Assembly: GCA_016219705.1 (NCBI GenBank)
Contig: JACRKQ010000024.1
Location: 479-64,478, forward strand
Source of the DNA: Candidatus Saganbacteria bacterium
GTDB lineage: Bacteria > Margulisbacteria > WOR-1 > O2-12-FULL-45-9
Direction of reading: 5' to 3'
Length of the DNA: 64,000 nt
Below, in pieces: positions 4,879 to 30,236 of this stretch. Both the position numbers and the translations under genes were made by a program. The stretch's first letter is position 1. Each line of letters begins with the position of its first letter. The notes under the pieces are model-generated. The model saw nothing but the letters and a program-made list of their open reading frames with translations. It was not told the origin of the DNA and did not search any database.

Positions 4879-5880
4879 TCAGAAAATAATCTTATTATAA
4901 TACAGCCTTGCTAAATCAACCGCTCCGAATACCCCCCCATCCTGACCTAAAGCCGAAGGGATAATTTTTATTCTCCCCGCCTGTTCCGCCGGCAAATTCC
5001 GCTTGACCAGATCGTTAAGCGATTTAAATAATAATTCACCGGCATCTGACATTCCCCCGCCAATAATAATTGTTTCCAATTTATGGAGTCGGATCAGTTT
5101 AACAATACCATGCGCTAAATAATTTAAACTTTCGGCCAGAACTTCCTGGGCGGTTCGGTCGCCTAAAGCCGCCGCCTCATAAATAATTTCCGCATTAATT
5201 TTAGCGGCCAAATCGTGACCATCTTTGAAAGGTCCGATTAATTTTAAGATTTGAGAATTAAGATCTTTTTTCTCCGCAATTTTTTGCAGAGCGTTTCTGG
5301 CAATCGCTTCACCAGATGAATAAAGATGCAGACAGCCTTTCTGCCCGCAGCCGCATTGAACACCATCTGGAACAACAACCATATGGCCGAATTCAGTTTC
5401 TCTGCCGCTCTTGCCGTGATAAACCTGACCGTCCGTAACAAGCGCTCCCCCCACCCCTGTCCCCAAAATTAAATAGAGGAAATTTTTGATCTCGCGGCCG
5501 GCGCCGGAATGCAGTTCGCCGAGAGCGGCGGCATTGGCATCATTATCTGCGAAAACCGGGAGGCGAAATTGCTTTTGCAGTCGCTGCTGGATTAAACAGG
5601 GTAAAATTATTTTTTGATTTTCAAGTTCGACTGTCAAACTCGGCGCGCCAACGCCAATGGCTTTAATATCTTTTTGGTCGGTGTCAGTAGTTTTAAGAAG
5701 TTCACTAATTCCATTATTAAGCATAGTATTCCAGGTGCCATCATAAACTCCGCTGGGCAGGATTATTTGTTTGAGGATCTTGCCGGAATCATCAGCCAGA
5801 GCGAACGCCGTTTTGGTGCCGCCAACATCTATGCCGATATACATTGGTTTTGAGTTTAGCGCAGATAAGATTTTTAACAA
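4879..5880 (-). CDS. ROK family sugar kinase (glucokinase-like)
   Basis: YIGIDVGGTK, ADNDANAAALGE and CGCGQKGCL motifs. The maximal ORF starts with TTG at 5880; ATG at 5844 (MYIGIDVGG) is the more likely start. Confidence 0.88.
   Translation of the reverse strand: MLKILSALNSKPMYIGIDVGGTKTAFALADDSGKILKQIILPSGVYDGTWNTMLNNGISELLKTTDTDQKDIKAIGVGAPSLTVELENQKIILPCLIQQRLQKQFRLPVFADNDANAAALGELHSGAGREIKNFLYLILGTGVGGALVTDGQVYHGKSGRETEFGHMVVVPDGVQCGCGQKGCLHLYSSGEAIARNALQKIAEKKDLNSQILKLIGPFKDGHDLAAKINAEIIYEAAALGDRTAQEVLAESLNYLAHGIVKLIRLHKLETIIIGGGMSDAGELLFKSLNDLVKRNLPAEQAGRIKIIPSALGQDGGVFGAVDLARLYYNKIIF
4906..5028. repeat. 123-bp direct repeat, copy B (inside the 3' end of the ROK kinase gene)
   Basis: Matches 4070-4192 with 2 mismatches. 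Confidence 0.95.
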
Positions 5881-7472
5881 GCCTCTTTGATTGATAATTC
5901 TAGTTCATGTCCCGGCGTCTGAAAGCCAGATTCAGCCGCCACCCGTTCCAGCATCCCGTTGATTAATTTTCGCTTATTAGTCAGAAAGGCCATCTCTCCC
6001 TGCGCCTCAATCGCCGTATTAAGCAGAGAAAATTCATGCTCCGCTTCACGGAACATCTTTTCGTTCGCCTTATCACGGATCTGGTCCAGTTCTATTTGAC
6101 TTAAACTGACTCCGATTTTATCCAGGTTGCGCAAGACGGTTTTAAGTTTTCTCTCCGTCATCTGCCAAGCTGCGCCTTCTAGTTTAGCATAAGTCGCCCG
6201 CTCTTCAAACCCTTCGCGCAGCATTTCAAAGAGTTTGATTTTAGCGCAAGCCGTCGCCTCTTTTTCAATCCGGTCAAAGTTACTGACTCCTAATTTAATT
6301 AAACCGTTCTTAGACCTGATCATCTTAAACTGGGTTTCGAGCAAGGTGCGGGCATCGCCATAGACCGCTCGGCGCATGTATAAAGCGCGCAACTTATCGG
6401 TCAGAATATCTTTTTCTTCCTGGACCGTATACTGATATTGGTGGCGCTGTTTTTGATCGCTACTCGTCCCTGTGCCGGTATCAATATATTCAGTATAAAT
6501 TAATAGATTGAGACCAAGATTATCTGTTAGCTTGGGTAATTTTTCCATAAATTGCTGAACATCATAACCAACTTTTGTCCCAAGCTTAAGTAATTCATCG
6601 ATGGCTTTTTCGGTCTTAGCTGGATCATCAGAAGTAACCTTCTTAATAACTTCACCAGTTAAGGCGTCGTCAACAAAGTCGCGCAATAAGCCATGGATAT
6701 CCTCTTTTGCCTCATTAACAACGCCCTGCAATCCCCCTTTATAATTACCGAACCTGTGGCCGCCTAAATTCATCTTCTTCTCTGCGAAGAATAATAAATC
6801 CTGGGTTTCCGATTTAGCGATTAACCACTCCATCGATTTTGATTTGGCTAAAATAAGATTTAAATAGGCGTCTTTAACCTGCAAAGCCACTTCGCCGCGG
6901 ATGGAATTAGCTGCCTGGAGCTTTAAGTTTTTGACATCTTTGTAATTCATCTCATGCTCGGCCAGTAGTTTTTTTTCTAACTGCTCCATTTTTCGTTTAG
7001 CTTCCTGGCCGCCGCACACCAGTGTTTGCGAATAAGCCGCGAGATATTCTTTAACATCAGATTGGGCCGAGTCATCATCTTGCCCTAAATCAGTTCCCGT
7101 TTGTCCGCTGAATTGTTTTTTCTGCTTGCTTGAGCTGACCGCAGTAATCGGGTTATTAACATCAACAATATCGTTGGTGTTTTCCTGCCTGCCATCAAGA
7201 GCAAAGCCGTAATCTTTCGCCAGATTATTCAGCAGTTTTGCCTGACCAATTTGTTGCGCCAACTTATTAGCTAAATTGGCCAATATTTGCACTCCGGCTT
7301 TATCGGCCTGGCCATTGAGCGCTTTTTTGAGGACACTCTCTGCGACTTTGGCATTATTATTAGTATCAAGCTTGCGCTCAAATTCCGACTTTAAAATCTG
7401 GTCGAGACTTTGGGCGGCTGAAAGGTTGCCCAAAACCGCGCCTTGTTGTTGATTAACTTGTTCCAATCCCAT
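5874..7472 (-). CDS. Hypothetical helical/coiled-coil protein (532 aa)
   Basis: Long ORF 4 nt downstream of the GT2-TPR gene. Q/N-rich N-terminus, no signal peptide or TM segment, no recognised motif. Confidence 0.75.
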   Translation of the reverse strand: MGLEQVNQQQGAVLGNLSAAQSLDQILKSEFERKLDTNNNAKVAESVLKKALNGQADKAGVQILANLANKLAQQIGQAKLLNNLAKDYGFALDGRQENTNDIVDVNNPITAVSSSKQKKQFSGQTGTDLGQDDDSAQSDVKEYLAAYSQTLVCGGQEAKRKMEQLEKKLLAEHEMNYKDVKNLKLQAANSIRGEVALQVKDAYLNLILAKSKSMEWLIAKSETQDLLFFAEKKMNLGGHRFGNYKGGLQGVVNEAKEDIHGLLRDFVDDALTGEVIKKVTSDDPAKTEKAIDELLKLGTKVGYDVQQFMEKLPKLTDNLGLNLLIYTEYIDTGTGTSSDQKQRHQYQYTVQEEKDILTDKLRALYMRRAVYGDARTLLETQFKMIRSKNGLIKLGVSNFDRIEKEATACAKIKLFEMLREGFEERATYAKLEGAAWQMTERKLKTVLRNLDKIGVSLSQIELDQIRDKANEKMFREAEHEFSLLNTAIEAQGEMAFLTNKRKLINGMLERVAAESGFQTPGHELELSIKEAC

Positions 7473-9458: not shown

Positions 9459-11597
9459 TTATGCGGTATCTTTTTTATTTTTGGCCAGCAGGGCTTTACT
9501 GTTTTTCGAAAAATTGAGTAGACGCTGACTGTATTTTTGCAAAGATTGTTTGTACTCGTTTGAACCCATTCTATAATCTCGTTGGCGACTGGCAGTCTGA
9601 CGCGCTGGATTTTGACGTTGAGCGCTTCGATTTTGATTATTCCCTCGGACAACAGCTCTTTCTTCTTGAGCTTTCTCCGCTTCGATTTCTTCTTTGCGCT
9701 GATTATGGTCTGCCATATCACTCTTATATTCCACGGAAGCAACTCGACGTGAAGACGATCTTTGCATTAACTGAACAAAATCCAGGTTCTGTCCCCACCT
9801 TAGGAGCATCCCTTGAGCATAAATCGCCCAATTTTGATTATACCTTTCTCCCGCAATCATATCATTGTAAGACAATTGGCTAAACTGGGCAGTAACATAG
9901 TTGGGATGCGGCACCCCTTCGATAGCAGAATTAATGTTTGAGGCAATGCTTCCCTGCCGCCAAAGTTGGTCCATAATATCGGCCCAACCCGCGTCTCGAG
10001 GTGAAACCCATCTAACATCATATACGCCGCTTCCAATTTTTGCCAAAATATCCGGCCCCCATTTTCTGTCCCAGCCATAACTTGGAAAATAGTTTGGATG
10101 ATTGGCTCGCTGTGGTAAAAAGACCGCTAAGGCTGTTTCTCGACTGCCATGAATATTTATAAAACTGATGCGGTTTTCTGGAGCGAAGTTCGCCCAATCA
10201 CTCTCACGAATACTAGAAAAATTATAGACTATGCGCGCTCCTTCCCGCTGCATCTCTTCATTACTGCTATAGCCCTCCCAGGTCGGACGATTGTTTCTCA
10301 ACTCCGTCGCGCCAAACCAACCCTCGATTAAGCGGGAAACAGCATTGTAAGCAGGAAGATTGCTGATCGATCCATCTCGAGTATATCTCTGTCGATAATC
10401 GTATAAGAAACCTCTTCTGGCCGGCCTTTCCACGCCGTTATAACTTTCACGTCCTGCCCATAGAGAAAATTCCCAAAAGCGCTCACGATCTAAAATTGAT
10501 AATTCCGACCCATCGCCTTTTTGTCTCTCATAAAAGGTAGTCATCCTGTTAATGGCAGAGTGTATTATAGGCAAAAACATGGTAAATAATGAAAGCGCGT
10601 GATGGTTAGCTGCCGGATTACTTGAATTAATAAAACGATCAATATTGGTCATCATAGACCTATCATCACGGGTTTGGTTGACCGCCCCAAAAATTTCCGT
10701 CATCATCGCCCAGGCGCGCTCCCGCGATTCATACATAGCCGCGACTAATAATGTCGCGTCGCGCGAGGATAAAGATTGATAACTGCGGTTAATGACAATC
10801 TGATAAAAACTTTTGCCTCTTAAATTAGGATTATTTTCTAAAAGATCTTTTACTTGCTGCCAATTACTTCCAATGGCACCCAGAAAATTACCAACTCGTC
10901 CCGAAGGATCGTTGATAAAATAAGCTTGTTCACCGACAAAGTTGGCTAAAGAATCCAGATTGGTACTATCTTTTTGCCTGATATGGTTCCATTCTGCAGC
11001 TTCCGTTTCAAAATCAAGGTTGCGAAAGGCAGTACCTTGTCCTTGTCCATCAATCATACCGGTTTCACCAGTGCGGTGATGCTGTCCCGCAATCCAGGTT
11101 GGTTGCCGACGGAACCTTGCAAACCCATCCGGATCACCACTACTCATAAGTTCTGGATGTCTTTCCGCCCAAATAATGGTGTCGGCATTAGTATATCGAG
11201 TATCGCCATTTTCATCATGGATATCTCTGATCACGTCTTCGCTCAAACCGATACCACTGGTACGAAAAGCTGTCCGCGCTTCTTCTGCAGAAGAGAAACC
11301 TTCCTCATTAAAAGCCTCCCACCATTGACTGGAAACAGTTGAGGATGTGCGGCCGTGAGCAAAGGTTACCCCGGAATCACCAGCAGGAAGAGCAGCGACA
11401 TTAGTGCTATACATTTTTTGCTCAAACCGGGGTAGAAATTTCATCATTTCCAAACCAAAATTAGCAAGACGCTTAAGATTTGGATCGTACGTTTGAAAAT
11501 TAGTAAAATCAGGACTTTGAGGAAGCAGGCGTTTTCTGGGACGACTGCCCTTTAATTGTTCAAGAGTTGAAGCGCTCGCGTATTTATTACCGAACAT
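9459..11597 (-). CDS. Large hypothetical protein (712 aa), Trp/Arg-rich with a charged C-terminal tail
   Basis: Uninterrupted 2.1-kb ORF, 19 Trp by my count, no signal peptide or TM segment, last ~90 aa Q/R/K/E-rich. Confidence 0.8.
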   Translation of the reverse strand: MFGNKYASASTLEQLKGSRPRKRLLPQSPDFTNFQTYDPNLKRLANFGLEMMKFLPRFEQKMYSTNVAALPAGDSGVTFAHGRTSSTVSSQWWEAFNEEGFSSAEEARTAFRTSGIGLSEDVIRDIHDENGDTRYTNADTIIWAERHPELMSSGDPDGFARFRRQPTWIAGQHHRTGETGMIDGQGQGTAFRNLDFETEAAEWNHIRQKDSTNLDSLANFVGEQAYFINDPSGRVGNFLGAIGSNWQQVKDLLENNPNLRGKSFYQIVINRSYQSLSSRDATLLVAAMYESRERAWAMMTEIFGAVNQTRDDRSMMTNIDRFINSSNPAANHHALSLFTMFLPIIHSAINRMTTFYERQKGDGSELSILDRERFWEFSLWAGRESYNGVERPARRGFLYDYRQRYTRDGSISNLPAYNAVSRLIEGWFGATELRNNRPTWEGYSSNEEMQREGARIVYNFSSIRESDWANFAPENRISFINIHGSRETALAVFLPQRANHPNYFPSYGWDRKWGPDILAKIGSGVYDVRWVSPRDAGWADIMDQLWRQGSIASNINSAIEGVPHPNYVTAQFSQLSYNDMIAGERYNQNWAIYAQGMLLRWGQNLDFVQLMQRSSSRRVASVEYKSDMADHNQRKEEIEAEKAQEERAVVRGNNQNRSAQRQNPARQTASRQRDYRMGSNEYKQSLQKYSQRLLNFSKNSKALLAKNKKDTA

Positions 11598-14511: not shown

Positions 14512-14701
14512 AAGCTCTCTTACTTTGTCTTACTTTATCAACAATTTTACCATTAGGCATTAAATAAACAATTTTCCCGTTTTGCATAAATACAGCTGGA
14601 ACCCCCAATCGCTGATGTTCTTTAAGCGCTTTTTTGACCGCTTCTTTGAAGGCTTTTTCCGCCATTAAGCTATATTTATCCATTTTTTGCTTACTAATCA
14701 T
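14501..14701 (-). CDS. Small protein (66 aa) partnered with the zeta-like ATPase
   Basis: 8-nt overlap with the upstream ATPase gene. Basic ends, no known motif. Confidence 0.55.
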   Translation of the reverse strand: MISKQKMDKYSLMAEKAFKEAVKKALKEHQRLGVPAVFMQNGKIVYLMPNGKIVDKVRQSKRASKQ

Positions 14702-15290
14702 TGATCATTCCCTGCGCTAAAGAAGTTAAAAAATATTCGTAATAATCAGTATTATACACTTTTAACCCCTCTTTCGTATGATTGGCCACTATTTTTGGCG
14801 CTTGGCTGGAATTATCAAAAAGAGACCAATTATCAGCCAAATTTTTGTAAACGTGCCAGAAGTTGCCGCGGGCTCTTTTATATCTTCTGCGAATTGTCTC
14901 TTCAGGAATATCGTGCCCGCCCGTTTCCACTCGATATTTTACTCGAGAGACAGATAAATCATCTGAAGTTAAATCCAGAAAAAAAACATAAATTTTATAC
15001 CCGGCATTTTTAAGCTCATCAATCAAAGTTAACCATTTTCTTCCGGCCAACGTAGTTTCAAAACCAAACGATTCCTCGTTTTTCTTATACTCAGCAATAA
15101 GTTCCAACATCAATCGCCCTGACTTAATATTCATGGCAGAATAATCAAAAGGGGAAAGACCAACTGCAATATCATCGGCATTCACAAAGTTTTTTACATT
15201 GACATATTTTGGAAGAAACTGCTTTACAAAAGTGGTTTTTCCAGAACCATTGGGCCCGCCGACTATATAAACCTCTCTGCTTCCATTCAC
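14694..15290 (-). CDS. Zeta-toxin-like / AAA-type P-loop kinase (198 aa)
   Basis: Walker A GGPNGSGKTT near the N-terminus. Size and layout match zeta-toxin/COG4185-like ATPases. AT-rich. Confidence 0.7.
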   Translation of the reverse strand: MNGSREVYIVGGPNGSGKTTFVKQFLPKYVNVKNFVNADDIAVGLSPFDYSAMNIKSGRLMLELIAEYKKNEESFGFETTLAGRKWLTLIDELKNAGYKIYVFFLDLTSDDLSVSRVKYRVETGGHDIPEETIRRRYKRARGNFWHVYKNLADNWSLFDNSSQAPKIVANHTKEGLKVYNTDYYEYFLTSLAQGMIND

Positions 15291-18639: not shown

Positions 18640-18946
18640 GGCGCATTTTTACTCCATGATCGTAACCTAATAAATGCAGAACCCCATGTATGACCAAACG
18701 TTTCACTTCTGTTTTGTAACTTACCCCATACTTTTTGGCATTACGTTTTGTCGTTTCGGTCGAAATCACCAGGTCGCCAAGAATGCCATCTTCGTCCATC
18801 AAAAAAGACAAGACATCGGTCGGCTTATCTTTTTTGCGAAAGCGCCGGTTCAACCCTCTCATTTCCTCATCAGAAACAAAAGACAGATTTATTGTACCTT
18901 TTCCCTTTTCTCTGGTCAAAATATTTTTCATCAAACGATCAAACAA
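18611..18946 (-). CDS. ybeY: rRNA maturation endoribonuclease YbeY (short form)
   Basis: HGVLHLLGYDH zinc motif and PTDVLSF. The ORF cannot extend beyond 111 aa because of a stop at 18950-18952. Confidence 0.85.
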   Translation of the reverse strand: MFDRLMKNILTREKGKGTINLSFVSDEEMRGLNRRFRKKDKPTDVLSFLMDEDGILGDLVISTETTKRNAKKYGVSYKTEVKRLVIHGVLHLLGYDHGVKMRHAEKIYQKF

Positions 18947-20195
18947 TTTTTATCTCCGCGCCCAAAGCCATTAATTTTTTTTGTAAATTCTCATAGCCCC
19001 GCTCAACATGATGGTCACGGTCCTCAATTTGCGTTTCTCCCTTGGCCGCCAAGCCGGCAATGATCAAGGCCGCTCCCGCCCGTAAATCAGAGACCTTGAC
19101 CGGCGCGCTGGACAGGAAGGGCACTCCGGTTATAATAGCACTTTGGCCTTCCAGCTTAATGTCTGCTCCCATCCGCTTCAATTCATTGACAAAAATAAAT
19201 CGGTTTTCAAAGACTGTTTCCGTCACGACCGAGGTCCCCTGAGCCAGCGCCAGTAAAGCGCAAAATTGCTGTTGCATGTCAGTCGGAAACCCAGGATAAG
19301 GGAGTGTCTTAACATCCGTTGCTTTAATCCCATTGCGGACAGAAATTGTCAGCCAATCCGACCCAATATCGATGAGCAAGCCGGCCTCTTTTAATTTAAC
19401 AATTGTCGCCTCAAGATGATCGGGGATAATATTCTTGAGCAATAAATTGCCCCCCGTAGCTGCAGCTACCACCATAAAAGTTCCCGCTTCAATCCGGTCA
19501 GGGATAATACGATATTCAACCGGATTGAGAGAGCGCACCCCTTGAATATGAACCTCTTCCGTCCCGGCCCCGGTGATTTTGGCTCCTGCCCGATTTAAGA
19601 ACCCAGCCAGGTCACTGACTTCCGGCTCACGGGCGGCATTTTCAATGATTGTCTCGCCTTCTGCCAAGGTTGCCGCCATCATCACCGTTTCCGTTGCTCC
19701 AACTGAAGGAAAATCAATATAGACTTTTGTGCCAATTAATTTTCTGGCGCTGACAATGACAAAACCATGTTCCATTTCTACCCTGGCGCCCAAAGCCTCC
19801 AAACCTTTAAGATGCAAATTCACCGGACGTGAACCAATCGCACAACCACCGGGCAGCGGCACTTTGGCCAAACCTTTGCGGGCCAGGATGGGGCCAATAA
19901 TAAAAAACGAAGCCCGCATCTTGGTCACCAGTTCGTAGGGAGCGACATGGCGGACATCTTCGTTCCATATCTCCACCGTGTTGGGCTGAGAGGCGGAATA
20001 TTCTGCTCGCAAACCCAATGCCCGCAACACCCTAAGCATCGTTTTGACGTCGAGTAAATTAGGGGTATTACGGATAACAGTTTTTCCCGGCAGAAGAATC
20101 GCTGCTGCTAAAATTGCCAGCGCAGAATTTTTTGCTCCCGAGATTTTCACTTCACCATTCAAGGGCTGGCCACCGACCACAACAATTTTCCTCAC
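18939..20195 (-). CDS. murA: UDP-N-acetylglucosamine 1-carboxyvinyltransferase
   Basis: ISGAKNSALAILAA, the active-site GGCAIGSRPV and a full-length 418 aa. Confidence 0.96.
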   Translation of the reverse strand: MRKIVVVGGQPLNGEVKISGAKNSALAILAAAILLPGKTVIRNTPNLLDVKTMLRVLRALGLRAEYSASQPNTVEIWNEDVRHVAPYELVTKMRASFFIIGPILARKGLAKVPLPGGCAIGSRPVNLHLKGLEALGARVEMEHGFVIVSARKLIGTKVYIDFPSVGATETVMMAATLAEGETIIENAAREPEVSDLAGFLNRAGAKITGAGTEEVHIQGVRSLNPVEYRIIPDRIEAGTFMVVAAATGGNLLLKNIIPDHLEATIVKLKEAGLLIDIGSDWLTISVRNGIKATDVKTLPYPGFPTDMQQQFCALLALAQGTSVVTETVFENRFIFVNELKRMGADIKLEGQSAIITGVPFLSSAPVKVSDLRAGAALIIAGLAAKGETQIEDRDHHVERGYENLQKKLMALGAEIKIV

Positions 20196-21358
20196 TGTTT
20201 CACCGTTTTTCTGGCCACAAATTCCGCCGGTTTACTGTTAGCCCGGCCAAAGCGATAAAGAATGACTCGAATAATCCGCTCGGCCGCCAGTCCATCTCCA
20301 TAAGGATTGACCGCCTGCGACATCCTGTCATAGGCCGCCCTGTCAGTCAATAATTCATTGGCTTCAGAAAAAATCAATTTATCATCTGCGCCTACCAGTT
20401 TTACCGTCCCCGCCGTCACAGCCTCAGGACGTTCTGTCTTTTCCCTCATAACCAGGACTGGTTTACCCAGTGCCGGGGCCTCCTCCTGAACTCCTCCGGA
20501 ATCTGTCAAAATAATGTAAGCTGCCTTCATCAAATGGACAAACGGTTCATAATCAAGAGGCTCCACCAGTTTTATATTTGCTACCTTGCCTAAAAGTTTT
20601 TTAATAACATCGCGCACTTGAGGATTGCGATGAACGGGTAAAACAATTTCGATTGAGGCAACGTGCACCTGTGCCAGTTGCAAAAGTGCGTGGCAGATAT
20701 TTTCCAGCGGCGGGCCAAGATTTTCCCGGCGATGGCAGGTTACCAGCACCAATTTCCTGGTCGGGTCCAATTGTATCCCGGTTTTGGCCAAGTCATAATC
20801 CATCTCGGCAGTCATCAATAAAGCATCGATGACGCTATTCCCCGTCAGGAAAATTGTTTCCCGGGAAACTTTTTCGGCTACAAGATTATCCACCGACGTT
20901 TGGGTCGGGGCGAAATGGAGATCAGCCAGAGCCGTCAGCAATTTTCGATTAATTTCTTCGGGATATGGTTGCCACTTATCGAAAGTTCGCAAACCGGCCT
21001 CAACATGACCAATATGGACTTTTTGGTAGAACGCAGCTAACCCCGCCGCAAAGGCGGTTGAAGTATCGCCTTGCACCAGCAACATATCAGGTTTTTCCCG
21101 CTCAATTATTTTCGTCAAACCTGTTAACGTCCGGTTGACAATATCACTTAGCGTCTGGTTATCGCTCATAATTTCCAGATCATATTTTGGCTTGATAGCA
21201 AAAAGCCGCAGCACCTGGTCAAGCATTTGACGATGCTGGCCGGTCACTACAATTATCGGATTAAGATGATCGGGCTGTTTTTGGCAGGCCATAATTACCG
21301 GGACCATTTTGATCGCTTCCGGCCGGGTACCAAAGACAAACATTAGCTTCTTCTTCAT
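20192..21358 (-). CDS. wecB: UDP-N-acetylglucosamine 2-epimerase (non-hydrolysing)
   Basis: FGTRPEAIKM, VTGQH, HVEAGLRT and DSGGVQEEAP motifs. Confidence 0.92.
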   Translation of the reverse strand: MKKKLMFVFGTRPEAIKMVPVIMACQKQPDHLNPIIVVTGQHRQMLDQVLRLFAIKPKYDLEIMSDNQTLSDIVNRTLTGLTKIIEREKPDMLLVQGDTSTAFAAGLAAFYQKVHIGHVEAGLRTFDKWQPYPEEINRKLLTALADLHFAPTQTSVDNLVAEKVSRETIFLTGNSVIDALLMTAEMDYDLAKTGIQLDPTRKLVLVTCHRRENLGPPLENICHALLQLAQVHVASIEIVLPVHRNPQVRDVIKKLLGKVANIKLVEPLDYEPFVHLMKAAYIILTDSGGVQEEAPALGKPVLVMREKTERPEAVTAGTVKLVGADDKLIFSEANELLTDRAAYDRMSQAVNPYGDGLAAERIIRVILYRFGRANSKPAEFVARKTVKQ

Positions 21359-22302
21359 AGCGCCATGACCAATGCGGCCAAACTTAAAATAAAACAGACA
21401 ATGTAGATGGCAAAAACTGCTTCCCGCTGGTTAAAACCCGCCCGCAACAACATATGATGAATATGTTTATTATCAGCTTCAAAAGGATTTTTCCCTGCCT
21501 GCAAACGTCTAACGATAGCAAAGAGCGTGTCAAAGATCGGCACGCCTAAAACCAGGATGGGCACAAACAGCGCCACTACCAGTGTTGTTTTAAAAACCCC
21601 AACAATGGAAGCCACCGCCAGGACAAACCCCAAAAACATCGAGCCGGAATCGCCCAGAAAAATCTTCGCCGGGAAAAAATTATAACGGATGAAACCCAGC
21701 GCCGTTCCCGCCAGCGCCAACATTAAGATAGCGGCGCTCAACTGATGTGTTCTCACTGCTACAAAAAACAAGCTGAAGGCGGAGATGGCCGTCACCCCTG
21801 CCGCCAGGCCATCTAAACCATCAATTAAATTGATGGCATTGGTCAAGCCGACCACCCAAAACAAAGTCAGCGGAATAGCCAGAAAACCAATGGCTAAAAT
21901 ACCATTAAAAGGGTTGGAGACAAAAGAAATTTCCAGGCCAAAACCAATCAAGAGTATGGCGGCGGCAATTTGCCAAAAAAGTTTTGTCAGCGGCCGCAAG
22001 GGCCTGATATCATCCCAAATTCCCGCCAACACCAGCAATGTCCCCCCTAGTGTGATCCCCAGCCCAACTTTAGGGTTAAGATTAATGCCAAAAAATCCCG
22101 CCAAAAAATAGGCGCAGCTTATGGCAATGATAAAACCGGCCCAGATGGCCACCCCCCCCAGCCGCGGGATTGGGAAAGCGTGAATTTTACGGTCACCGGG
22201 GAGATCAACAGCATTGATCTTAACGGCAATTTTTTTGATTATGGGGGTGACAAAGTAGGTGATAAGAAAAGCCAGCAAAAACGTCAAGAAGTATATGACC
22301 AT
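21355..22302 (-). CDS. Polyprenyl-phosphate N-acetylhexosamine-1-phosphate transferase (WecA/TagO/MraY family, GT4)
   Basis: Multi-TM protein with NLIDGLDGLA and LGDSGSMFLG motifs. Confidence 0.88.
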   Translation of the reverse strand: MVIYFLTFLLAFLITYFVTPIIKKIAVKINAVDLPGDRKIHAFPIPRLGGVAIWAGFIIAISCAYFLAGFFGINLNPKVGLGITLGGTLLVLAGIWDDIRPLRPLTKLFWQIAAAILLIGFGLEISFVSNPFNGILAIGFLAIPLTLFWVVGLTNAINLIDGLDGLAAGVTAISAFSLFFVAVRTHQLSAAILMLALAGTALGFIRYNFFPAKIFLGDSGSMFLGFVLAVASIVGVFKTTLVVALFVPILVLGVPIFDTLFAIVRRLQAGKNPFEADNKHIHHMLLRAGFNQREAVFAIYIVCFILSLAALVMAL

Positions 22303-23520: not shown

Positions 23521-23550
23521 TTGACAAAAAACTAGAGAATAAAATACAAT
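23521..23550 (+). promoter_or_regulatory. Sigma70-like promoter candidate (TTGACA-N18-TACAAT)
   Basis: TTGACA at 23521-23526 and TACAAT at 23545-23550. The -10 element overlaps the first ATG (23549), so the second ATG (23558) could be a leaderless start. Confidence 0.3.
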
Positions 23551-25480
23551 GCCCTTAATGAAGTCTAGCGCTGTCGGGGTTCTGTTTTTTGCCGCTTTAT
23601 TTTTACTAAGCACCAGTAGCGCTGCCGCTGTCATCACTGGCTCTGATTTTCCTTACGGCCGTTTCCAATTACGCACCCCGCCCCAGGAAAACCCTTTCCC
23701 CGGACTGGGGAGTTATTATGCGACATTATCCGACGGGATCTCAACTGTCATGTGGAATCCGGCTTCCCTGGGAAAACTTAAAACTGCCCAACTGAATTTT
23801 GCCGCCTTTAATGAGCTTGCCCCTGGTGCTTTTTCCTATAAATATCAGACAAAAGATACCCAGCAAAGCCTTGGCTCTTCGAATAACATGAGTATCGGAC
23901 TTTATGTCACCCCGGATATTAATGTGACTAACGCCGCCACGCGGGAACATACCGCCCATGCCAGTTATCGGACACAAAGCAGCGGGCTTAATTTTCGGCA
24001 AGGGTTGAGGATCAACGACTGGTTGAGCCTCGGCGCGATTGAAAGAGGCGACAGCGGCGCGGCCATTGATCTGTCAGGCTCTTCAACTATCGTCAGTAAA
24101 TTCACGACTAATTTTCTCAACTCTTCAATAAGCTTCGGCAGTCGTTTAACGGTTACTGTCGATAATTCTGGTTTTGCCAGCATTCTCGTGACGCCGGAAG
24201 CCGGTCTGACTTACACCAGCAATTTAACAGAAAAGATTTGGCGCGGTTTCACTCAACAAAATTCCACCGTCCCTTTTACTTCACTGCTTGAAGCCCGAAA
24301 CGACGTTTCTTTGAGCGCGCCGTACACATTAGCCGGAGCGGCAAATTACGGTAAATTCTGCTTCGGCGCCGCTTTTACCCCAATTACGGCCAGCGCCAAC
24401 ATTAATAATAATGTAAAAATTATAATTAATGAGGGGACCAAAGATATGTTTTTATACCTTCCTAACATTGATCCTAATGACGAACAGAGCTTTCTTAATT
24501 GGGTCGATAATCCTAATCAATATGCTACGGAACTTGGCTATCGCAAAAATACTGTCAGAGTTCCGGCCGGAGAGACCATTGCTGAAGCAAGATACAAGGG
24601 CTTTTACCAGGCCAGCACGGCGCGTCTCGATCTTGGCGGCACTTATGACTTTGGCGAGGCTATGACTGTTGGTTTAGCGCTGGAGAATATTGGCGGCGCA
24701 GCCCTCGATTTTCGCGGCGCCGGCCGCGTGGCTTACGCTAATTCCCGCATCGGGACGCTGGAAGCGCCGTCTCTTGATCTCACCCAAACTTTTAACTGGT
24801 CGCCATTTAAAGAAACCTTCGTTCCGATCAGCGGTTCAGAAAATATGTCCCTGGAAGAACAGCTTAATGGCCCCCTGCCCAAACGAACACGTCTCGGATT
24901 TGTCCTCCATAAACCATTTTTGATCGCCATAGATTATGAAACGAATCAAACACCGATAAGATATAAATACAAAGATGAAACAACGCAATTAACCACAGTT
25001 GGTGAAATTAGCAATCTCAATTTTTTACGCGCCGGTTTAGAATCCAGTTTATTTGGGCTCCCTTGTCTCTTGCGCACAAATTTCATTTTTATGCTTAAGC
25101 CAACCTTAACGAATTTTCCGGCCGATATACAAAGTCAGGTTAACAGCTTATTTAAATATAAGGTCTTGCTGGCGCCAGTCGGTTTTGATCTGGGAACGGA
25201 GTTAAATTTGCAAGGGACTATTATTGGGGCTAGCGGTGGATATAACGCCACGTCGCTCCTCTCCCTGGCACAATTGGATTCCCTGAATGTCGACTTGGGA
25301 AAAATTTCATATTACAATATCTATGGCAGTCGCGGACCCTGGCGCGTAAGTTATCTGGCCGCTTTTGACGCCGGCTCGACCGGCCTGGCGTACGCCAATC
25401 GCGCCGATAAAAGCGCAAAAAATTTCGACCTATCTATTTTAAGATATGTGCAAACTTTGACTGTGGGGTATGCTTTTTAA
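23549..25480 (+). CDS. Secreted outer-membrane beta-barrel-like protein (643 aa), PorV-like N-terminal motif
   Basis: Sec signal peptide (…STSSAAA). GLGSYYATLSDGISTVMWNPASLG motif. Alternating beta-strand-like sequence. C-terminal ...LTVGYAF (terminal Phe). Confidence 0.7.
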   Translation: MPLMKSSAVGVLFFAALFLLSTSSAAAVITGSDFPYGRFQLRTPPQENPFPGLGSYYATLSDGISTVMWNPASLGKLKTAQLNFAAFNELAPGAFSYKYQTKDTQQSLGSSNNMSIGLYVTPDINVTNAATREHTAHASYRTQSSGLNFRQGLRINDWLSLGAIERGDSGAAIDLSGSSTIVSKFTTNFLNSSISFGSRLTVTVDNSGFASILVTPEAGLTYTSNLTEKIWRGFTQQNSTVPFTSLLEARNDVSLSAPYTLAGAANYGKFCFGAAFTPITASANINNNVKIIINEGTKDMFLYLPNIDPNDEQSFLNWVDNPNQYATELGYRKNTVRVPAGETIAEARYKGFYQASTARLDLGGTYDFGEAMTVGLALENIGGAALDFRGAGRVAYANSRIGTLEAPSLDLTQTFNWSPFKETFVPISGSENMSLEEQLNGPLPKRTRLGFVLHKPFLIAIDYETNQTPIRYKYKDETTQLTTVGEISNLNFLRAGLESSLFGLPCLLRTNFIFMLKPTLTNFPADIQSQVNSLFKYKVLLAPVGFDLGTELNLQGTIIGASGGYNATSLLSLAQLDSLNVDLGKISYYNIYGSRGPWRVSYLAAFDAGSTGLAYANRADKSAKNFDLSILRYVQTLTVGYAF

Positions 25481-28122
25481 TGACAAATAATAAAATCCAA
25501 TGCGTTTTGTCACTTATTATTTATTGTTCGATGGTTTCTACTTGTTTTGCCTCTCCCATTATTTCCAATGAAGAATTAGTCTCCGTCGCCGACAATCACA
25601 TCGTCATTACCTGGCAGACAACCAATGAAGCGGCTAACTCCGGCGTCAAATGGGGTTATAGCTCTACGCCTGATAATATTTATGTAACAGATGAAGCCAG
25701 GACCATGGATCATTATCTGGTTTTAACCAACCTCTACCCAAACACTATTTACTATTACAAAGTTTTCAGCTATTCGGCGGCCGGGACGACCGAAAGTGTG
25801 CTGCATTCCGTGACCACGCTAGCGCGACCCAGCGGCAATTATCTTTTCAGTTTCGCCACCCTGACAGATCTTCATTATGCGCCCAATCGCGCCAGTACGA
25901 CGAATGTCCGCGGCCGCCCCTATGCTTCCAGCGAAGCGCTTATCGACGCTCTGGTCAGCAACATTAATCAGCACTCTCCCGCCTTCACTATAATTAAAGG
26001 CGATATGATGGACGTCGGGGTTGACACTCCACTCATCCGGATTGCCCAATTGAAAAGCCGTCTTGATAATTTAACCGGCAGCGGCAGTACAAAATATTAT
26101 CCTATCCCCGGCAATCATGATAAGGGGATAACTTATGATTCTGGCAATAATTGGGTAACCGGCAATCTGGGAGTGCTCTATCCCGCAAAGGCAGGACTAC
26201 CGGCCGGCAATTCTACTTTCAATTATGGTTTTAATTATAGCGGTTATCGCTTCATTCTTCTTGATTCTTCCGTCAGCAACGGGACAACAGCTGAAGTTAA
26301 TATTACTTCGTTGGAAGCGGAATTAACGATCGCCAGGACAGCGGGCCAAAAAGCTTTTATCTTTATGCACCATGAAACGAGTGAGGAATCGGATATCCCT
26401 ATTGATTTTTTTCGTACGGTTTTAGACGAATCAAGCTGGGAAGAGAGTGACTGGAATAAAATTAGATTAATCAACAAAACCGCTTTCATGAGTTCGCTTG
26501 AGGCTTATAAATTAGCTAATGGCGAACCAGTTGCGGCGGGAGTATTTTCGGGACATATCCATGACAACCGCAAACGTGTTTTCAATAATATTCCCTATGT
26601 ACGCACGGCTTCCGGCCTGCAATTTCCCACTGGTTTTAATATTTATAAAGTCTACAGCAACGGTTATATTCAGACTTTCTATAAGCTGCCTGGTTTTTCC
26701 GAAGAAATTGCCCGCGACCTTGTAACCGGCACCGCTGAAATTACCGCCGCCCGCGCCCAGCAATTTTATCTCGGCGGCGCTTCTAGCCGTAATTTCACTT
26801 TCACTTATACCACCAGCACCACCATCGCACCAACAATCGAATCACTTCAACCAGCCAGCGAGAGCAGCAGCGTTGCCTTAAACCAACCTATCATCATTAC
26901 TTTTACTAAAACCATGAGTCGAGAAACAGCTGTCCAGAGCTGGTTAAATATTACAGCCAACAGCACGCCCCTAACTCTAACAAGTTCCGATTGGAGCTGG
27001 AATGCCGCCAGGACAATTTTAACGATCAATAAAACGTTGTCCGCCTCTACAAATTATATCGTCACGATCAGCGGCGGGGCCAGCGGCGCCGTTGCCGCTG
27101 ACAACACCTATTTTAGTTCCGATTACAGTTTTAGTTTTGCCAGCGGCGCTGCACCATCGACAACAGCGCCATTGGCTGTTTTCCACAACATCAAAAATGA
27201 GCAGGGCTCCGTAACCGACGTTACCACTAACTCCAAACCAACATTAACCGGTGTAGCGACCGATGCCAGCGGCTCAACAATCACCGATGTTGAATGCCGC
27301 TATGCCAGCGGTAGTTTCAGCGCCTGGCTCCCGGCCACGCCTCTTGATGGCGCTTTTAATTCATCCCAGGAAGCTTTCTCCTTTACTGTAACCAGTGAAA
27401 TTGTCCGAGGACAGCATGAAATCCAGGTCCGCTCAACTAACGCGGCCGGTCTTACCTCAACCGGATCTTCAACCGCTTATTCTTTTTGGGTCATCAGCAA
27501 TAAACCAGAGCTCACATTGAAAGCTAATGGCACCAGCCTAATTAACGGCGACCCGCTTGATACCTCCCCTTCGCTGGAAATCTCTGTCATTACAGATGTC
27601 ACTCTTGATCAACTTTGGCTAACCATTGATACCGATCGAATTAATCTCAAACCCGCCAGCCCCAGTTTTGTGAATACAATCTTTTATCGCCCCACTCTGG
27701 CCGCGGGGACGCATAACTTGAAAGTCGAGACTGTTGACATAACTGCCAGCGGTGTCAGCCGCGCTAGCACAAAGGAAGCTGTTAATTTATTGGTGCAGAC
27801 TGCCGGCGATCCCAATCTTTTTGGCCCGCCCCTTAATTATCCCAATCCCTTTGATCCCTCATCTCAAAGCACAATCATCAGTTACACGTTATCGAAAGAT
27901 TCTGATATTAACTTAAAAATTTTTGATTTAGGCGGAAATCTTTTGGTTAATCAAAGTTTCACATCAGGCCAGAGCGGCAGCAAAGCCGGTTACAACGAAA
28001 TCACGTGGGATGGCAAGAGCAATGGGAACTTAGTCGGCAACGGTCTTTACCTCTATCTGCTCATTAGCGACGGCAAAGTCCTGCAGAACGGGACCGGGAA
28101 GATTACGGTGTTCAAACTATGA
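25480..28122 (+). CDS. Secreted metallophosphoesterase with FN3/PAP-N-like, Ig-like and T9SS-type (FlgD-Ig/Por_Secre_tail-like) C-terminal domains
   Basis: Signal peptide. Calcineurin-like motifs TDLH, GDMMD, GNHD, MHHE and GHIHDN. The C-terminus LNYPNPFDP...ISYTL...INLKIFDLGGNLL...ITWDGKSNGNLVGNGLYLYLL matches the CTD pattern. 1-nt TAATG overlap with the upstream gene. Confidence 0.8.
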   Translation: MTNNKIQCVLSLIIYCSMVSTCFASPIISNEELVSVADNHIVITWQTTNEAANSGVKWGYSSTPDNIYVTDEARTMDHYLVLTNLYPNTIYYYKVFSYSAAGTTESVLHSVTTLARPSGNYLFSFATLTDLHYAPNRASTTNVRGRPYASSEALIDALVSNINQHSPAFTIIKGDMMDVGVDTPLIRIAQLKSRLDNLTGSGSTKYYPIPGNHDKGITYDSGNNWVTGNLGVLYPAKAGLPAGNSTFNYGFNYSGYRFILLDSSVSNGTTAEVNITSLEAELTIARTAGQKAFIFMHHETSEESDIPIDFFRTVLDESSWEESDWNKIRLINKTAFMSSLEAYKLANGEPVAAGVFSGHIHDNRKRVFNNIPYVRTASGLQFPTGFNIYKVYSNGYIQTFYKLPGFSEEIARDLVTGTAEITAARAQQFYLGGASSRNFTFTYTTSTTIAPTIESLQPASESSSVALNQPIIITFTKTMSRETAVQSWLNITANSTPLTLTSSDWSWNAARTILTINKTLSASTNYIVTISGGASGAVAADNTYFSSDYSFSFASGAAPSTTAPLAVFHNIKNEQGSVTDVTTNSKPTLTGVATDASGSTITDVECRYASGSFSAWLPATPLDGAFNSSQEAFSFTVTSEIVRGQHEIQVRSTNAAGLTSTGSSTAYSFWVISNKPELTLKANGTSLINGDPLDTSPSLEISVITDVTLDQLWLTIDTDRINLKPASPSFVNTIFYRPTLAAGTHNLKVETVDITASGVSRASTKEAVNLLVQTAGDPNLFGPPLNYPNPFDPSSQSTIISYTLSKDSDINLKIFDLGGNLLVNQSFTSGQSGSKAGYNEITWDGKSNGNLVGNGLYLYLLISDGKVLQNGTGKITVFKL

Positions 28123-30236
28123 GAACAAAAAGGCCCGTAATGGCCCATAGTGGTCAAAACGGCAAAGGACGAAAATGGCTAAAACGAGAAAAAGGTAAAA
28201 GTCTTTTTAGCCTTTATTGCCTTTTGCCCTTTATCGCTTTATGGGCCTTTATGGGCCCTTCATTTTTTGTCAGCGTTTCATTCGCTAGCGACGGTTATTC
28301 CTTCGACCCTTCCAGCCGGCCTTTTTCCGCCCGGCAATTAGGCCTGGGTGGTGTGGGAGTAGCGTTTGCCAACGATGCCAATAGCCTTTTCACCAATACA
28401 GCTAGCCTGGCCAATATAAAGTTCCCTCAATTAGTCGGTTCTTCCCGTAAAATCTTATTGGAAGCTTCCCAATATACCCAGGCAGCCGTGGCTGTGCCGA
28501 CAGAATGGGGAATATTTGGTTTAGGCTATACCGGACTTAACGCCAGCGGTTCACTGCCCACCACGCGCGACCCCGCCAACGGTCGAATTATCATCGATGC
28601 CAGCCGTGAAGCAATTGGCAATGGAAACAATGTCTTGTCTTTCAGCTACGCGAAGAAAATCAGGCCAAACCTGGCTTGGGGCGCCAGTTATAAAATATTC
28701 AACCAATCATTAAGCGGCGGTTTTGTCAGCCAGGCTAATGCCGCCGGACTCGACCTTTCAGCTGTTTATAAACCTTTCAACTGGTTAACCGCCAGCATGA
28801 ATTTACAAAATTTGCTGGAAGGCAGCCTGCAGTGGTCCGGCAGCGGCAGCGGCGATAAAATCGGCGGCTTTTACAGTATTAGCTGTCAGGTAAATTTATT
28901 AGGCGGCAGTTGGGAGGCCATACGACCCAATAAGCAAAAATTAGATGTCGGGATAGATATTAATCTCCCCCACAACCGCCTCTCTTCCTCCCCAACTTAC
29001 GGCTTGGGCCTGGAATATTTTCCTCTGCCGAAGTTAGCTCTGCGAACTGGATTTAATGCAAATGGTCTGACCTGGGGACTGGGATTGACCAGCAGTGGTT
29101 TCCGTTTTGATTACGCTTTTCTGCAGCAGGCTGACATCCCCGGCGATTCCCCGCATTATTTTTCCCTAGCCTATGTCGGAGAGTTGATCACCAATGTTTA
29201 CTATAAGCTTAAAAAGAAAATTGCCGGCATCGTGTTATTACAACCTAAAGAGCGCTTTATTACCGACCAGCCGGAGATAAAAATCAATTTTCAGGCCAAG
29301 GAAAAACGTATTGTTGAAGAAAAAACTGTTTGGACAGTTTCGGCTTTGTCGGAAACTTTCGAGACGAAAGAATTGACCGAGGAAGCAAACTTACCTTTGG
29401 TTTATTTGAATGGCTTCAAATTTGACCAAACGGGGACGATCGAGACAGCGGTGCCGCTGCAGTTCGGCCGCAATGTCCTGGAATTAGTCGCCTTTAGCAC
29501 GCCGGAAACAGTCAGCGGCCGCCTCACGGCAGAAGTCTCCAGCGCTTCCACTGAAGTAAAAGTCTTACGCATCAAGCCCTTCAGCGACACGCCGTTAACC
29601 CATTGGGCGCTGGAACCGATCGCCCTTAATGTGACGCTTGGCCTGGTGACCGGCTATCCCGACGAAAGTTTTAAACCGGAAAAGGGAATCTCCAGAGCGG
29701 AGCTGGTGGCTTTATTGGTCAGAACTCTGCCTCCCCCGCAATCTGAAGAAGCGGCCGCGGCCGGGAAATTTAAAGATGTCCCGGCAAACCATTGGGCGGC
29801 AGAATTCATAATCACCGGTGTTGACAAAGGTTTTGTCACCGGTTATCCTGGTAATTTATTTAAGCCTAATAAAATCCTTTCTCGCGCTGAAGGGGTAACA
29901 ATCATGACCCGTTATGCCAGTTTAGCGGGGGAAACTATTTTGCCGGCGCCTTTCGCTGATTTGCCGGAAAATTTTTGGGCCAATAAATTTATTGCGGCGG
30001 CAAAAAGCGGCGGCTTGCTTCAATATTTAGAGGGGAAGAATTTCGCTCCGGCGGCTGATTTTAGCCGGGCGGAAGCCTGTGAAATCCTTTATCGCACGCC
30101 GGAGATCCGCGATCGCGTTGAACGTTTCTGGGAGACTGGCATTATCGGTGAAGCCCCGCCGCCAAGTTTCACGACAACACAGGAAATCATTCCTCTTTCT
30201 CCGCCGCCAGCGAAAAGCCCCACCCGTTGGTTTTAA
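28119..30236 (+). CDS. PorV/PorQ-like beta-barrel protein with three C-terminal SLH domains (705 aa)
   Basis: ATGA overlap with the upstream gene. ARQLGLGGVGVAFANDANSLFTNTASLA motif. Three tandem repeats carry the SLH consensus (F.D.P..HWA...I......G...GY....F.P....SRAE) at 29580-30094. Confidence 0.75.
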   Translation: MRTKRPVMAHSGQNGKGRKWLKREKGKSLFSLYCLLPFIALWAFMGPSFFVSVSFASDGYSFDPSSRPFSARQLGLGGVGVAFANDANSLFTNTASLANIKFPQLVGSSRKILLEASQYTQAAVAVPTEWGIFGLGYTGLNASGSLPTTRDPANGRIIIDASREAIGNGNNVLSFSYAKKIRPNLAWGASYKIFNQSLSGGFVSQANAAGLDLSAVYKPFNWLTASMNLQNLLEGSLQWSGSGSGDKIGGFYSISCQVNLLGGSWEAIRPNKQKLDVGIDINLPHNRLSSSPTYGLGLEYFPLPKLALRTGFNANGLTWGLGLTSSGFRFDYAFLQQADIPGDSPHYFSLAYVGELITNVYYKLKKKIAGIVLLQPKERFITDQPEIKINFQAKEKRIVEEKTVWTVSALSETFETKELTEEANLPLVYLNGFKFDQTGTIETAVPLQFGRNVLELVAFSTPETVSGRLTAEVSSASTEVKVLRIKPFSDTPLTHWALEPIALNVTLGLVTGYPDESFKPEKGISRAELVALLVRTLPPPQSEEAAAAGKFKDVPANHWAAEFIITGVDKGFVTGYPGNLFKPNKILSRAEGVTIMTRYASLAGETILPAPFADLPENFWANKFIAAAKSGGLLQYLEGKNFAPAADFSRAEACEILYRTPEIRDRVERFWETGIIGEAPPPSFTTTQEIIPLSPPPAKSPTRWF
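28127..28260. repeat. Long imperfect palindromic repeat element, copy A (inside the 5' end of the 705-aa ORF)
   Basis: The A/G-rich arm (AAAAGGCCCGTAATGGCCCATAG...) is roughly 70% complementary to the T/C-rich arm (...CTTTATGGGCCTTTATGGGCCC). Shares GGCCCGTAATGGC, CTTTTTAGCCTTT, TTTGCCCTTTA and TATGGGCCTTTA blocks with 33162-33290. Confidence 0.85.

Follow-up and report, generated by a model that had tools for sequence, protein, structure and literature searches.

To our knowledge, PorV and the C-terminal domains (CTDs) of type IX secretion systems (T9SS) have been regarded as belonging to a machine that only Bacteroidota possess. Here, we describe a three-gene operon (genes 1, 2, and 3) in which a CTD-bearing protein and a PorV-like outer-membrane barrel are encoded side by side on a 64,000-nucleotide stretch of DNA (the window) from Candidatus Saganbacteria, contig JACRKQ010000024.1. 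The host belongs to the Margulisbacteria, which are relatives of the Cyanobacteria (their sister group) and lie on the Terrabacteria side of the tree, outside the Fibrobacteres-Chlorobi-Bacteroidetes (FCB) group.

Closest among the described systems are the PorU-PorV and PorZ-PorQ pairs of Porphyromonas gingivalis, in which PorU and PorZ are anchored via PorV and PorQ (PMC12365241) and porU and porV are adjacent genes (PMC5445135). Like these pairs, the operon combines a putative CTD-retaining surface protein with a 14-strand barrel of the PorV/PorQ family, the hold of the one on the other being assumed here by analogy; the order of genes 2 and 3 (CTD protein, then barrel) is that of porU and porV, and the gene 2 CTD is nearest to that of PorU. 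Unlike in these pairs, the passenger here is a metallophosphoesterase or nothing, with no sortase domain, the barrel is fused to surface-layer homology (SLH) domains, a double-length barrel makes up a third component, and the host is a margulisbacterium, with Sov and PorKLMN not found in its 64-kb window. Another likeness is to the type B CTD substrates of Flavobacterium johnsoniae, which are genetically linked to their cognate PorP/SprF shuttles (PMC12618676) and afterwards anchored by them, as the cargo gene here is linked to its own outer-membrane carrier, and the CTD of one related locus even passes a type B model (see below). The carriers here differ from type B anchors in being of the PorV/PorQ family rather than PorP/SprF, and the window CTD is of the type A or FlgD-Ig kind. 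Taken together, our analysis suggests that the "tag plus carrier" principle of type IX secretion operates outside Bacteroidota, and we consider it an evenly balanced proposition that the operon encodes a Margulisbacteria-specific envelope complex, in which a wall-tethered PorV-type anchor would hold a surface protein that bears a CTD, and gene 1 would supply the partner barrel.

The gene 3 barrel and the gene 2 CTD

The features that carry this interpretation are the following.

28119..30236, + strand: gene 3, PorV-like barrel-SLH fusion, 705 residues (698 from 28140)
28296..29174, + strand: gene 3 N-terminal hatch and 14-strand PorV-like barrel, residues 60-352 (PorV_fam, Foldseek, DSSP)
29184..29570, + strand: gene 3 beta-rich spacer, residues 356-484, putatively periplasmic (all-beta; predicted local distance difference test, pLDDT, ~90)
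29574..30143, + strand: three SLH domains of gene 3, residues 486-675 (Pfam SLH, E-value 8.2e-27, three stretches)
25480..28122, + strand: gene 2, secreted multidomain protein, 880 residues, with signal peptide
27820..28119, + strand: gene 2 CTD, residues 781-880, T9SS type A / FlgD-Ig type (NYPNPF, WDG, GxYxY, and C-terminal GKITVFKL)

Comparison of gene 3 with the PorV/PorQ family model NF033709 (PorV_fam) gave an alignment over positions 12-324 of 326, with 76.3 bits and an E-value of 3e-21. While this score does not reach the curated cut-off of 90 bits, two related proteins pass it (94.1 bits in locus L034 and 91.6 in L033; L numbers are our locus labels), with the others at 50-87 bits. 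The AlphaFold2 model (pLDDT 82.6) is made up of a hatch, a barrel, a beta-rich domain, and three helical SLH units, and DSSP assigned 14 strands between residues 104 and 352. Foremost among the Foldseek hits, as the top two, were PorV chains 8gl6_F and 6h3i_F from the F. johnsoniae SprA translocon (E-value 2e-10, TM-score 0.61-0.66), with FadL behind them (TM-score 0.52); in other words, the predicted fold is a FadL-type barrel of 14 strands lying closest to solved PorV. What the sequence-only reading had drawn from an N-terminal motif, a PorV-like gene 3, thus extends to the whole family model and to the best-matching folds.

More conspicuously, that reading had missed the three SLH domains (E-value 8e-27) and the C-terminal beta domain of gene 3. 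Each SLH domain bears an invariant Trp and an R-x-E (TRAE-type) motif, and the beta spacer is conserved in the orthologues, as judged with a hidden Markov model (HMM) of the middle region. The SLH part matched the SLH trimers of Sap/SpaA in Foldseek (TM-score ~0.8), these being structures bound to pyruvylated polymer, and a search of the Protein Data Bank (PDB) with the gene 3 profile returned Sap, Veillonella OmpM, and Deinococcus SlpA, in each case by their SLH parts. The SLH domains of Cyanobacteria and Deinococcus bind pyruvylated secondary wall polymers. As in OmpM, SlpA, and the cyanobacterial SLH-porins, which stem from the same broad lineage, SLH and an outer-membrane beta-barrel are joined in one polypeptide with conserved ligand motifs, and the sequence matches of gene 3 are to the SLH parts of these proteins. 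In contrast to the OmpM-type order of N-terminal SLH, coiled-coil stalk, and C-terminal porin, gene 3 is reversed (barrel first, SLH last), with three SLH domains instead of one, a beta-sandwich spacer in place of the stalk, a PorV/FadL-type barrel in place of a porin, and a co-encoded CTD partner. Because its PorV-like barrel is fused to SLH domains, gene 3 is probably a fixed anchor rather than the mobile shuttle for which it had been taken.

Loop assignments in gene 3 presume the topology of the FadL family. On this basis, conservation in the predicted extracellular loops L2 (residues 144-164), L1, and L7 equals that of the membrane strands and is low in several periplasmic turns; L2 has a low pLDDT. 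Such a pattern is unusual among outer-membrane proteins, and it is what might be expected if the loops hold a conserved partner; in PorV, the loops are ordered only upon CTD binding (PMC10994853).

The presumed partner, the gene 2 CTD, occupies the last 100 residues at the extreme C-terminus, with a conserved Lys near its end, and type A CTDs have a near-invariant Lys in a like place (PMC10994853). Among 41 gene 2 homologues, the C-terminal motif GK(L/I)TV(L/F)K(R/L) is conserved. A profile of six CTDs, when searched against the PDB, found the P. gingivalis PorU CTD as its top hit (residues 1061-1139 of 1156, E-value 2.6e-5), followed by FlgD Ig domains and then by PorZ (E-value 0.11) and the RemA CTD (E-value 0.55), and the NCBIfam matches of the gene 2 CTD were to the C-terminal parts of the PorU/PorZ models and to TIGR04183. 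The window copy scores 20.0 on TIGR04183 (cut-off 23), 15.2 on PF18962 (Por_Secre_tail; cut-off 27), and 19.9 on FlgD_ig (cut-off 27). On TIGR04183, the CTDs of the short orthologues L023 (25.6) and L026 (24.8) pass, and those of L025 and L018 score 22.8 and 18.0. With PorU as best solved relative and two orthologues above the cut-off, the T9SS-type CTD recognized earlier from its motifs is supported.

In a genome-wide scan, more distant CTD matches came from Bacteroidetes, Ignavibacteria, Calditrichaeota, Latescibacteria, Cloacimonadales, WOR-3, Zixibacteria, and Gemmatimonadetes, and in these loci no PorV-like gene stands next downstream of the CTD gene. No other CTD proteins were found with the CTD HMM in the window or in the locus flanks. 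The FlgD-Ig-like fold was also seen inside a Thermincola protein (L054, 4582-8253), where eight copies stand in tandem, and as repeats followed by SLH domains in Gracilibacteria proteins (L063 and L065).

In every locus with enough flanking DNA (~30 loci, of which a few may be one species sampled twice), the order gene 1, CTD protein, PorV-SLH protein is kept. This synteny persists down to 34% identity, and in L009, where the PorV-SLH gene is at 29% identity, the preceding gene ends in the same type of CTD as gene 2. Counting all forms, a CTD gene lies directly upstream of a PorV-like gene in ~40 loci, and a CTD gene with its own PorV-like gene is thus a recurring unit. Here, the cargo-plus-carrier module proposed by the sequence-only reading stands as far as adjacency goes, though the middle protein is more like a constant structural partner than a cargo.

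Moreover, CTD proteins of very large size are encoded in some of the same Margulisbacteria genomes. Their beta-helix, GH9, FN3, He_PIG, PKD, and cadherin-like domains are those typically seen in extracellular enzymes and adhesins. In L029, L031, L034, and L035, the giant CTD gene is immediately followed by a gene for a PorV-like barrel that lacks SLH domains, these paralogous barrels scoring 50-94 bits on PorV_fam, and a genome scan with a narrow PorV-like alignment recovered only the four already-known paralogues. Other C-terminal extensions, presumably periplasmic, are found in the paralogues of L031 (6297-7526), L034 (3425-4867), and L035 (6478-8100): in L034 and L035 these comprise two basic helical repeats (…YINLLDSKIK…KAKGNTAKVKEL…), and in L031 a hydrophobic helix with RKR at the end, as if anchored in the inner membrane. 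In L032 and L036, the giant CTD gene is followed by another giant surface-protein gene and by no PorV-like gene, and in L032 (6252-11258) that next gene runs off the contig. L033 and L037 pair a CTD protein with a PorV-SLH protein in the absence of gene 1, and the L037 CTD protein (919-2841, directly upstream of the PorV-SLH gene) passes the model for the CHU_C type B T9SS signal (Pfam, 35.4 vs 27), which blurs the divide between types A and B in these CTD/PorV-like modules.

Operon structure, the gene 2 passenger, and gene 1

The remaining features of the operon are listed here.

23521..23550, + strand: promoter-like site, TTGACA-18-TACAAT, 11/12 consensus matches (a consensus match only)
23549..25480, + strand: gene 1, predicted outer-membrane beta-barrel, 643 residues (640 from 23558), with signal peptide, FadL/PorV-type hatch, and terminal Phe
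25576..25800, + strand: gene 2 FN3 / purple-acid-phosphatase N-terminal-like domain, residues 33-107 (Pur_ac_phosph_N 27.9 bits, cut-off 30; fn3 18 bits)
25852..26562, + strand: gene 2 calcineurin-like metallophosphoesterase, residues 125-361 (Metallophos 27.9 bits, cut-off 21.5)
26821..27474, + strand: gene 2 Ig-like domains, Big_5 (residues 448-553) and Big_13 (residues 580-665) (Pfam)

Three overlapping, translationally coupled genes had been proposed, and the open reading frames (ORFs) are indeed present on the + strand at 23549-25480, 25480-28122, and 28119-30236. The stop of gene 1 and the start of gene 2 share one base in TAATG, and the ATG at 28119 overlaps the gene 2 stop in ATGA. The latter overlap, however, hinges on the true start of gene 3, because public gene calls place it at the ATG at 28140 (698 residues); for gene 1, the called start is the ATG at 23558 (640 residues). 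Judged from the sequence, the tight packing of the three genes holds for either choice. The promoter-like site sits within the 64-bp divergent intergenic gap common to coaE and gene 1, and its -10 element abuts or overlaps the first ATG of gene 1, with the called second ATG 8 nt downstream, and the gene 1 transcript may thus be leaderless or almost so. Terminator-like sites within the operon were no more frequent than in shuffled sequence. Among usual neighbours, coaE is found upstream, and comEC, comEA, an SLT lytic transglycosylase, PNPase, and S15 downstream.

Homologue searches returned ~60 sequences for gene 3, 37 for gene 1, and 44 for gene 2, at 34-58% identity, nearly all from metagenome-assembled genomes of Candidatus Margulisiibacteriota, Saganbacteria, and WOR-1, with one genome labelled Omnitrophota. 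The same taxa emerged when GTDB species genomes were scanned, once with the CTD alignment and once with that of gene 1. A canonical T9SS is to be expected in a member of Bacteroidota or the FCB group, which this host is not, and with the homologues of all three genes likewise from Margulisbacteria, the Bacteroidota frame in which the operon had been read does not fit.

For gene 2, a Sec-exported protein, the signal peptide, FN3-like domain, phosphoesterase motif set, and Ig-like repeats described from the sequence were all recovered, the domains in Pfam and the motifs DxH, GD, GNHD, H, and GHxH intact in the window copy, which places it in PF00149. When the whole protein was searched against the PDB, weak FN3 matches were the only ones found. 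Across the loci, the middle protein comes in ~19 long (850-950 residues) and ~13 short (208-335 residues) forms, the short ones having a signal peptide, a single Ig-like domain, and the CTD but no phosphoesterase. Complete catalytic motifs were seen in only three of 15 long forms compared (the window, L004, and L006); His of motif I is replaced by Gln in six, and in another 6/15 (L012, L014-L017, and L022) the motifs are grossly degenerate. The six core metal ligands are kept in 37 of the 41 closest full-length gene 2 homologues, and within the clade to which the window belongs, the enzyme probably has activity, as far as its residues tell. We therefore regard the phosphoesterase as a cargo only in part: it is present and motif-complete in the window, but degenerate or missing in many orthologues, and on these grounds we rejected it as the purpose of the operon. 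Since the Ig domain and CTD are the sole parts of the middle protein constant throughout the phylum, we see in it a structural component that partners the barrels and may or may not carry a passenger, rather than a typical cargo.

With regard to gene 1, the signal peptide, barrel-like sequence, and terminal Phe that had been noted are evident in the translation, with Phe nearly invariant among 34 homologues. The N-terminal hatch has W-N-P-A-S-L as its invariant motif. Its AlphaFold2 model is all-beta (pLDDT 86.4, predicted TM-score 0.72), with ~33 beta segments by DSSP, and the best fold matches, at a TM-score of only 0.43-0.47, were FadL transporters and two entries of the Bacteroidota beta-barrel assembly machinery (BAM) complex, 9n2d_B and 9hiv_F. 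These two chains are probably BamG, the FadL-family subunit. The PorV/PorQ family model matched gene 1 only at residues 52-140 (E-value 9e-4, 18.9 bits), rather than over the full length, and no other Pfam or NCBIfam match was found in gene 1, including to the FadL family models. Moreover, hhalign of the gene 1 and gene 3 profiles aligned the hatch motif alone (33 columns, probability 91%).

A profile search of 1.84 billion representative proteins yielded just 74 gene 1 relatives, of which ~59 are family members or their fragments, full-length ones being ~620-660 residues. Most of the others have 270-390 residues and match mainly inside the first ~160 positions of gene 1. When ten of these outside relatives were checked, most proved to be bona fide PorV/PorQ family members (four of them at 162-210 bits), one was BamG-like, and one had no family match, and the gene 1 profile reached true PorV/PorQ proteins over gene 1 positions 4-163 only. 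Gene 1 thus shares the hatch and first strands (its N-terminal ~160 residues) with PorV/PorQ/BamG/FadL proteins, and by its sequence it appears to be a divergent member of this superfamily, about double in length and confined to Margulisbacteria. Put differently, the description of gene 1 as PorV-like is apt for the N-terminal ~160 residues, but the remainder forms a separate, double-length family. An arrangement of two complete PorV barrels in tandem was considered and is unsupported, as the alignment to gene 3 is confined to the hatch and the hint of an internal repeat (residues 139-178 against 352-391, probability 70% by local hhalign) is weak. In comparison with FadL and BamG, gene 1 has the N-terminal hatch with NPA-type motif and FadL as best folds, but it is ~1.5-2 times longer, makes up its own one-phylum family, and has no family match past the N-terminus. 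BamG also serves as a precedent for FadL-type barrels acting as docking platforms for surface proteins (PMC12611786).

T9SS core genes and the window neighbourhood

That no PorK/L/M/N or Sov genes lie in the window, as had been claimed, was upheld by a Pfam/NCBIfam screen of window ORFs of at least 150 residues, in which no GldK/L/M/N, SprA/Sov, PorU, PorZ, PorP, or PorT was found; seven ORFs matched no family, and the remaining ones are housekeeping genes. The same screen found no PorU-like sortase in the window. In the published survey, T9SS is limited to Bacteroidetes (PMC4793230), and our literature search brought up no paper tying Margulisbacteria to T9SS, nothing joining PorV, SLH, and outer membrane, and nothing relevant on Margulisbacteria secretion systems. 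Near the window end, at 63379-63939 on the minus strand, the coding sequence of an inner-membrane platform protein (GspF/PilC type) is cut off by the window edge, with its C-terminal portion inside. From this gene we deduce that a type II secretion or type IV pilus system lies close by, through which surface proteins might alternatively be exported.

Just upstream of the operon, past tRNA-His and coaE, the opposite strand carries a group of genes (18939-22302, minus strand) for a TagO/WecA-type glycosyltransferase (Glycos_transf_4), a UDP-GlcNAc 2-epimerase, and a MurA-like protein. UDP-GlcNAc 2-epimerase makes the ManNAc precursor of SLH-binding wall polymers. The nearby TagO/WecA and epimerase genes are compatible with wall binding by SLH, though not specific to it, and csaB was not seen in the window.

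Elsewhere in the window, we observed a REP-associated tyrosine transposase (RAYT / IS200-like; 62769-63278, minus strand; 100.6 bits, cut-off 80) and a small nucleotidyltransferase and HEPN pair (toxin-antitoxin-like MNT/HEPN; ~54481-55183, minus strand) that adjoins argG in a low-GC stretch (52-56 kb, GC 0.38). A Zeta-toxin / AAA_33-like kinase gene (14694-15290, minus strand) lies between the genes for pyrG and dihydroorotate dehydrogenase, with a 66-residue ORF as its minus-strand downstream neighbour. Two proteins of 712 and 532 residues (9459-11597 and 5874-7472, both minus strand) have no Pfam/NCBIfam family and no obvious signal peptide, and one of them is rich in charged coiled-coil-like sequence.

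Proposed mechanism and alternative explanations

Were the operon to encode an envelope complex of the kind proposed above, the SLH domains of gene 3 would bind the pyruvylated secondary cell-wall polymer that peptidoglycan carries, as happens in Cyanobacteria, and this binding would fix the PorV-like barrel and help to tie the outer membrane to the wall. By analogy with PorV holding PorU and PorQ holding PorZ, the conserved flexible extracellular loops of gene 3 would permanently hold the CTD of gene 2, which would thereby be shown on the cell surface, with its passenger probably an active metallophosphoesterase in the window's lineage, and dead or missing in other lineages. Gene 1 would act as the partner barrel, either as a scaffold or as the route of gene 2 across the outer membrane. 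A CTD protein with its own PorV-like anchor would then be a rule reused for giant glycoside hydrolases and adhesins in some genomes. Such a system would probably work without the PorKLMN/Sov machinery of Bacteroidota, and gene 1, the type II system, or co-assembly with a barrel at the BAM complex are candidate routes by which gene 2 could cross the outer membrane.

Several points weigh against this interpretation. Both the PorV_fam score of gene 3 (76.3 vs 90 bits) and the TIGR04183 score of the window CTD (20.0 vs 23) are under the curated cut-offs, and the FlgD-Ig fold alone is not diagnostic, because internal repeats of it occur in the unrelated surface proteins of L054, L063, and L065. The membrane orientation of the loops and SLH domains is deduced from FadL-family topology, the negative result for T9SS core genes covers the 64-kb window, and the role of gene 1 as scaffold or export route is the least supported step of the model. 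Furthermore, neither PorU nor PorZ can do without Sov and the motor in Bacteroidota (PMC12365241). A bolder version, which we hold to be doubtful but worth stating, is that Margulisbacteria achieve self-contained outer-membrane display or secretion by the CTD/PorV principle without Sov/PorKLMN, with gene 1 as the export route and PorV-like barrels, tethered by SLH or otherwise, as cargo-specific fixed anchors; here, gene 1 would be an expanded, perhaps partly duplicated PorV-like barrel.

Of the explanations that do without such a complex, an ordinary T9SS cargo locus would have the canonical machine (Sov/SprA, PorKLMN, and PorU/Z) elsewhere in the genome, with gene 3 as PorV and gene 2 as a substrate. 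While the CTD and PorV similarities are real, the portion of the genome examined is 64 kb, and all Bacteroidota CTD proteins, PorU and PorZ included, need the full machine (PMC12365241), we judge this unlikely: the phylum is outside the FCB group and published T9SS surveys list only Bacteroidetes (PMC4793230), the window is without any T9SS core gene, and a barrel tethered by SLH cannot serve as a mobile shuttle. Moreover, CTD genes are few, and all but those of L032 and L036 directly precede a PorV-like gene, unlike in the FCB loci that the same scan recovered. We likewise give little credence to a nutrient module. Its two FadL-type channels would take up compounds that are hydrophobic or phosphorylated, and its phosphoesterase on the surface would free phosphate or nucleosides; with comEC and comEA as neighbours, extracellular DNA would be a possible source. 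FadL transporters are the best folds of gene 1, the FadL-type NPA hatch motif is in both barrels, the window phosphoesterase is motif-complete with the six core ligands in 37/41 close homologues, and comEC and comEA are conserved neighbours. However, the enzyme is degenerate or absent in ~19 of ~32 loci (some perhaps one species sampled twice) in which barrels and CTD stay conserved, gene 3 resembles PorV more than FadL, comEC runs convergently and does not share a transcript with the operon, and neither barrel matches the Pfam FadL family (Toluene_X).

Very improbable, in our estimation, is an accessory role in outer-membrane biogenesis, where a FadL-family barrel docks an extracellular canopy protein over the assembly site, much as the surface protein BamH is anchored by BamG, itself a FadL-family barrel (PMC12611786). 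The gene set is conserved and syntenic wherever found, as for essential genes, the gene 1 folds include 9n2d_B and 9hiv_F from BAM complexes (probably BamG), and one distant gene 1 relative scores on the BamG model. Nevertheless, the scores on the BamG model are far under its cut-off, neither bamA nor bamD adjoins the operon, gene 2 bears a CTD and is no lipoprotein, unlike BamH, and the hydrolase cargo of the paralogous CTD/PorV pairs points instead to surface display. It also seems hardly probable that gene 3 is mainly an OmpM-kind tether of outer membrane to wall, with genes 1 and 2 as unrelated neighbours. Joining SLH to a barrel is the tether architecture of diderm Terrabacteria, reported in Margulisbacteria and Saganbacteria, and the SLH motifs are invariant, but the order, overlap, and co-occurrence of the three genes are kept down to 29-34% identity, and the pairing of CTD with PorV-like barrel recurs in paralogues without SLH. 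All four of these explanations are weakened by the present evidence.

At the level of annotation, our analysis gives a concrete assignment to three families of an uncultured phylum that are labelled hypothetical, Ig-like, or SLH-domain in the sources, where just one gene 3 homologue carries the PorV/PorQ family label. The locus varies the T9SS carrier/anchor principle in a phylum without reported T9SS: the tag-plus-barrel pair is a syntenic operon in every Margulisbacteria locus examined, across the bacterial tree from Bacteroidota, and its barrel carries the SLH wall anchor that is typical there. If the system is self-contained in the sense above, the tag-and-carrier pair would predate the T9SS of Bacteroidota or be more widespread, and it would physically link surface proteins, outer membrane, and wall in a relative of the Cyanobacteria. 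Should the pair work without Sov/PorKLMN, this would show the carrier/anchor half of T9SS functioning and evolving alone, and it would point to an unknown export route over the outer membrane and to a novel way of joining the cell surface to outer membrane and wall in a lineage beside Cyanobacteria. The finding thereby bears on where T9SS components came from and on the means by which diderm Terrabacteria connect these three layers.

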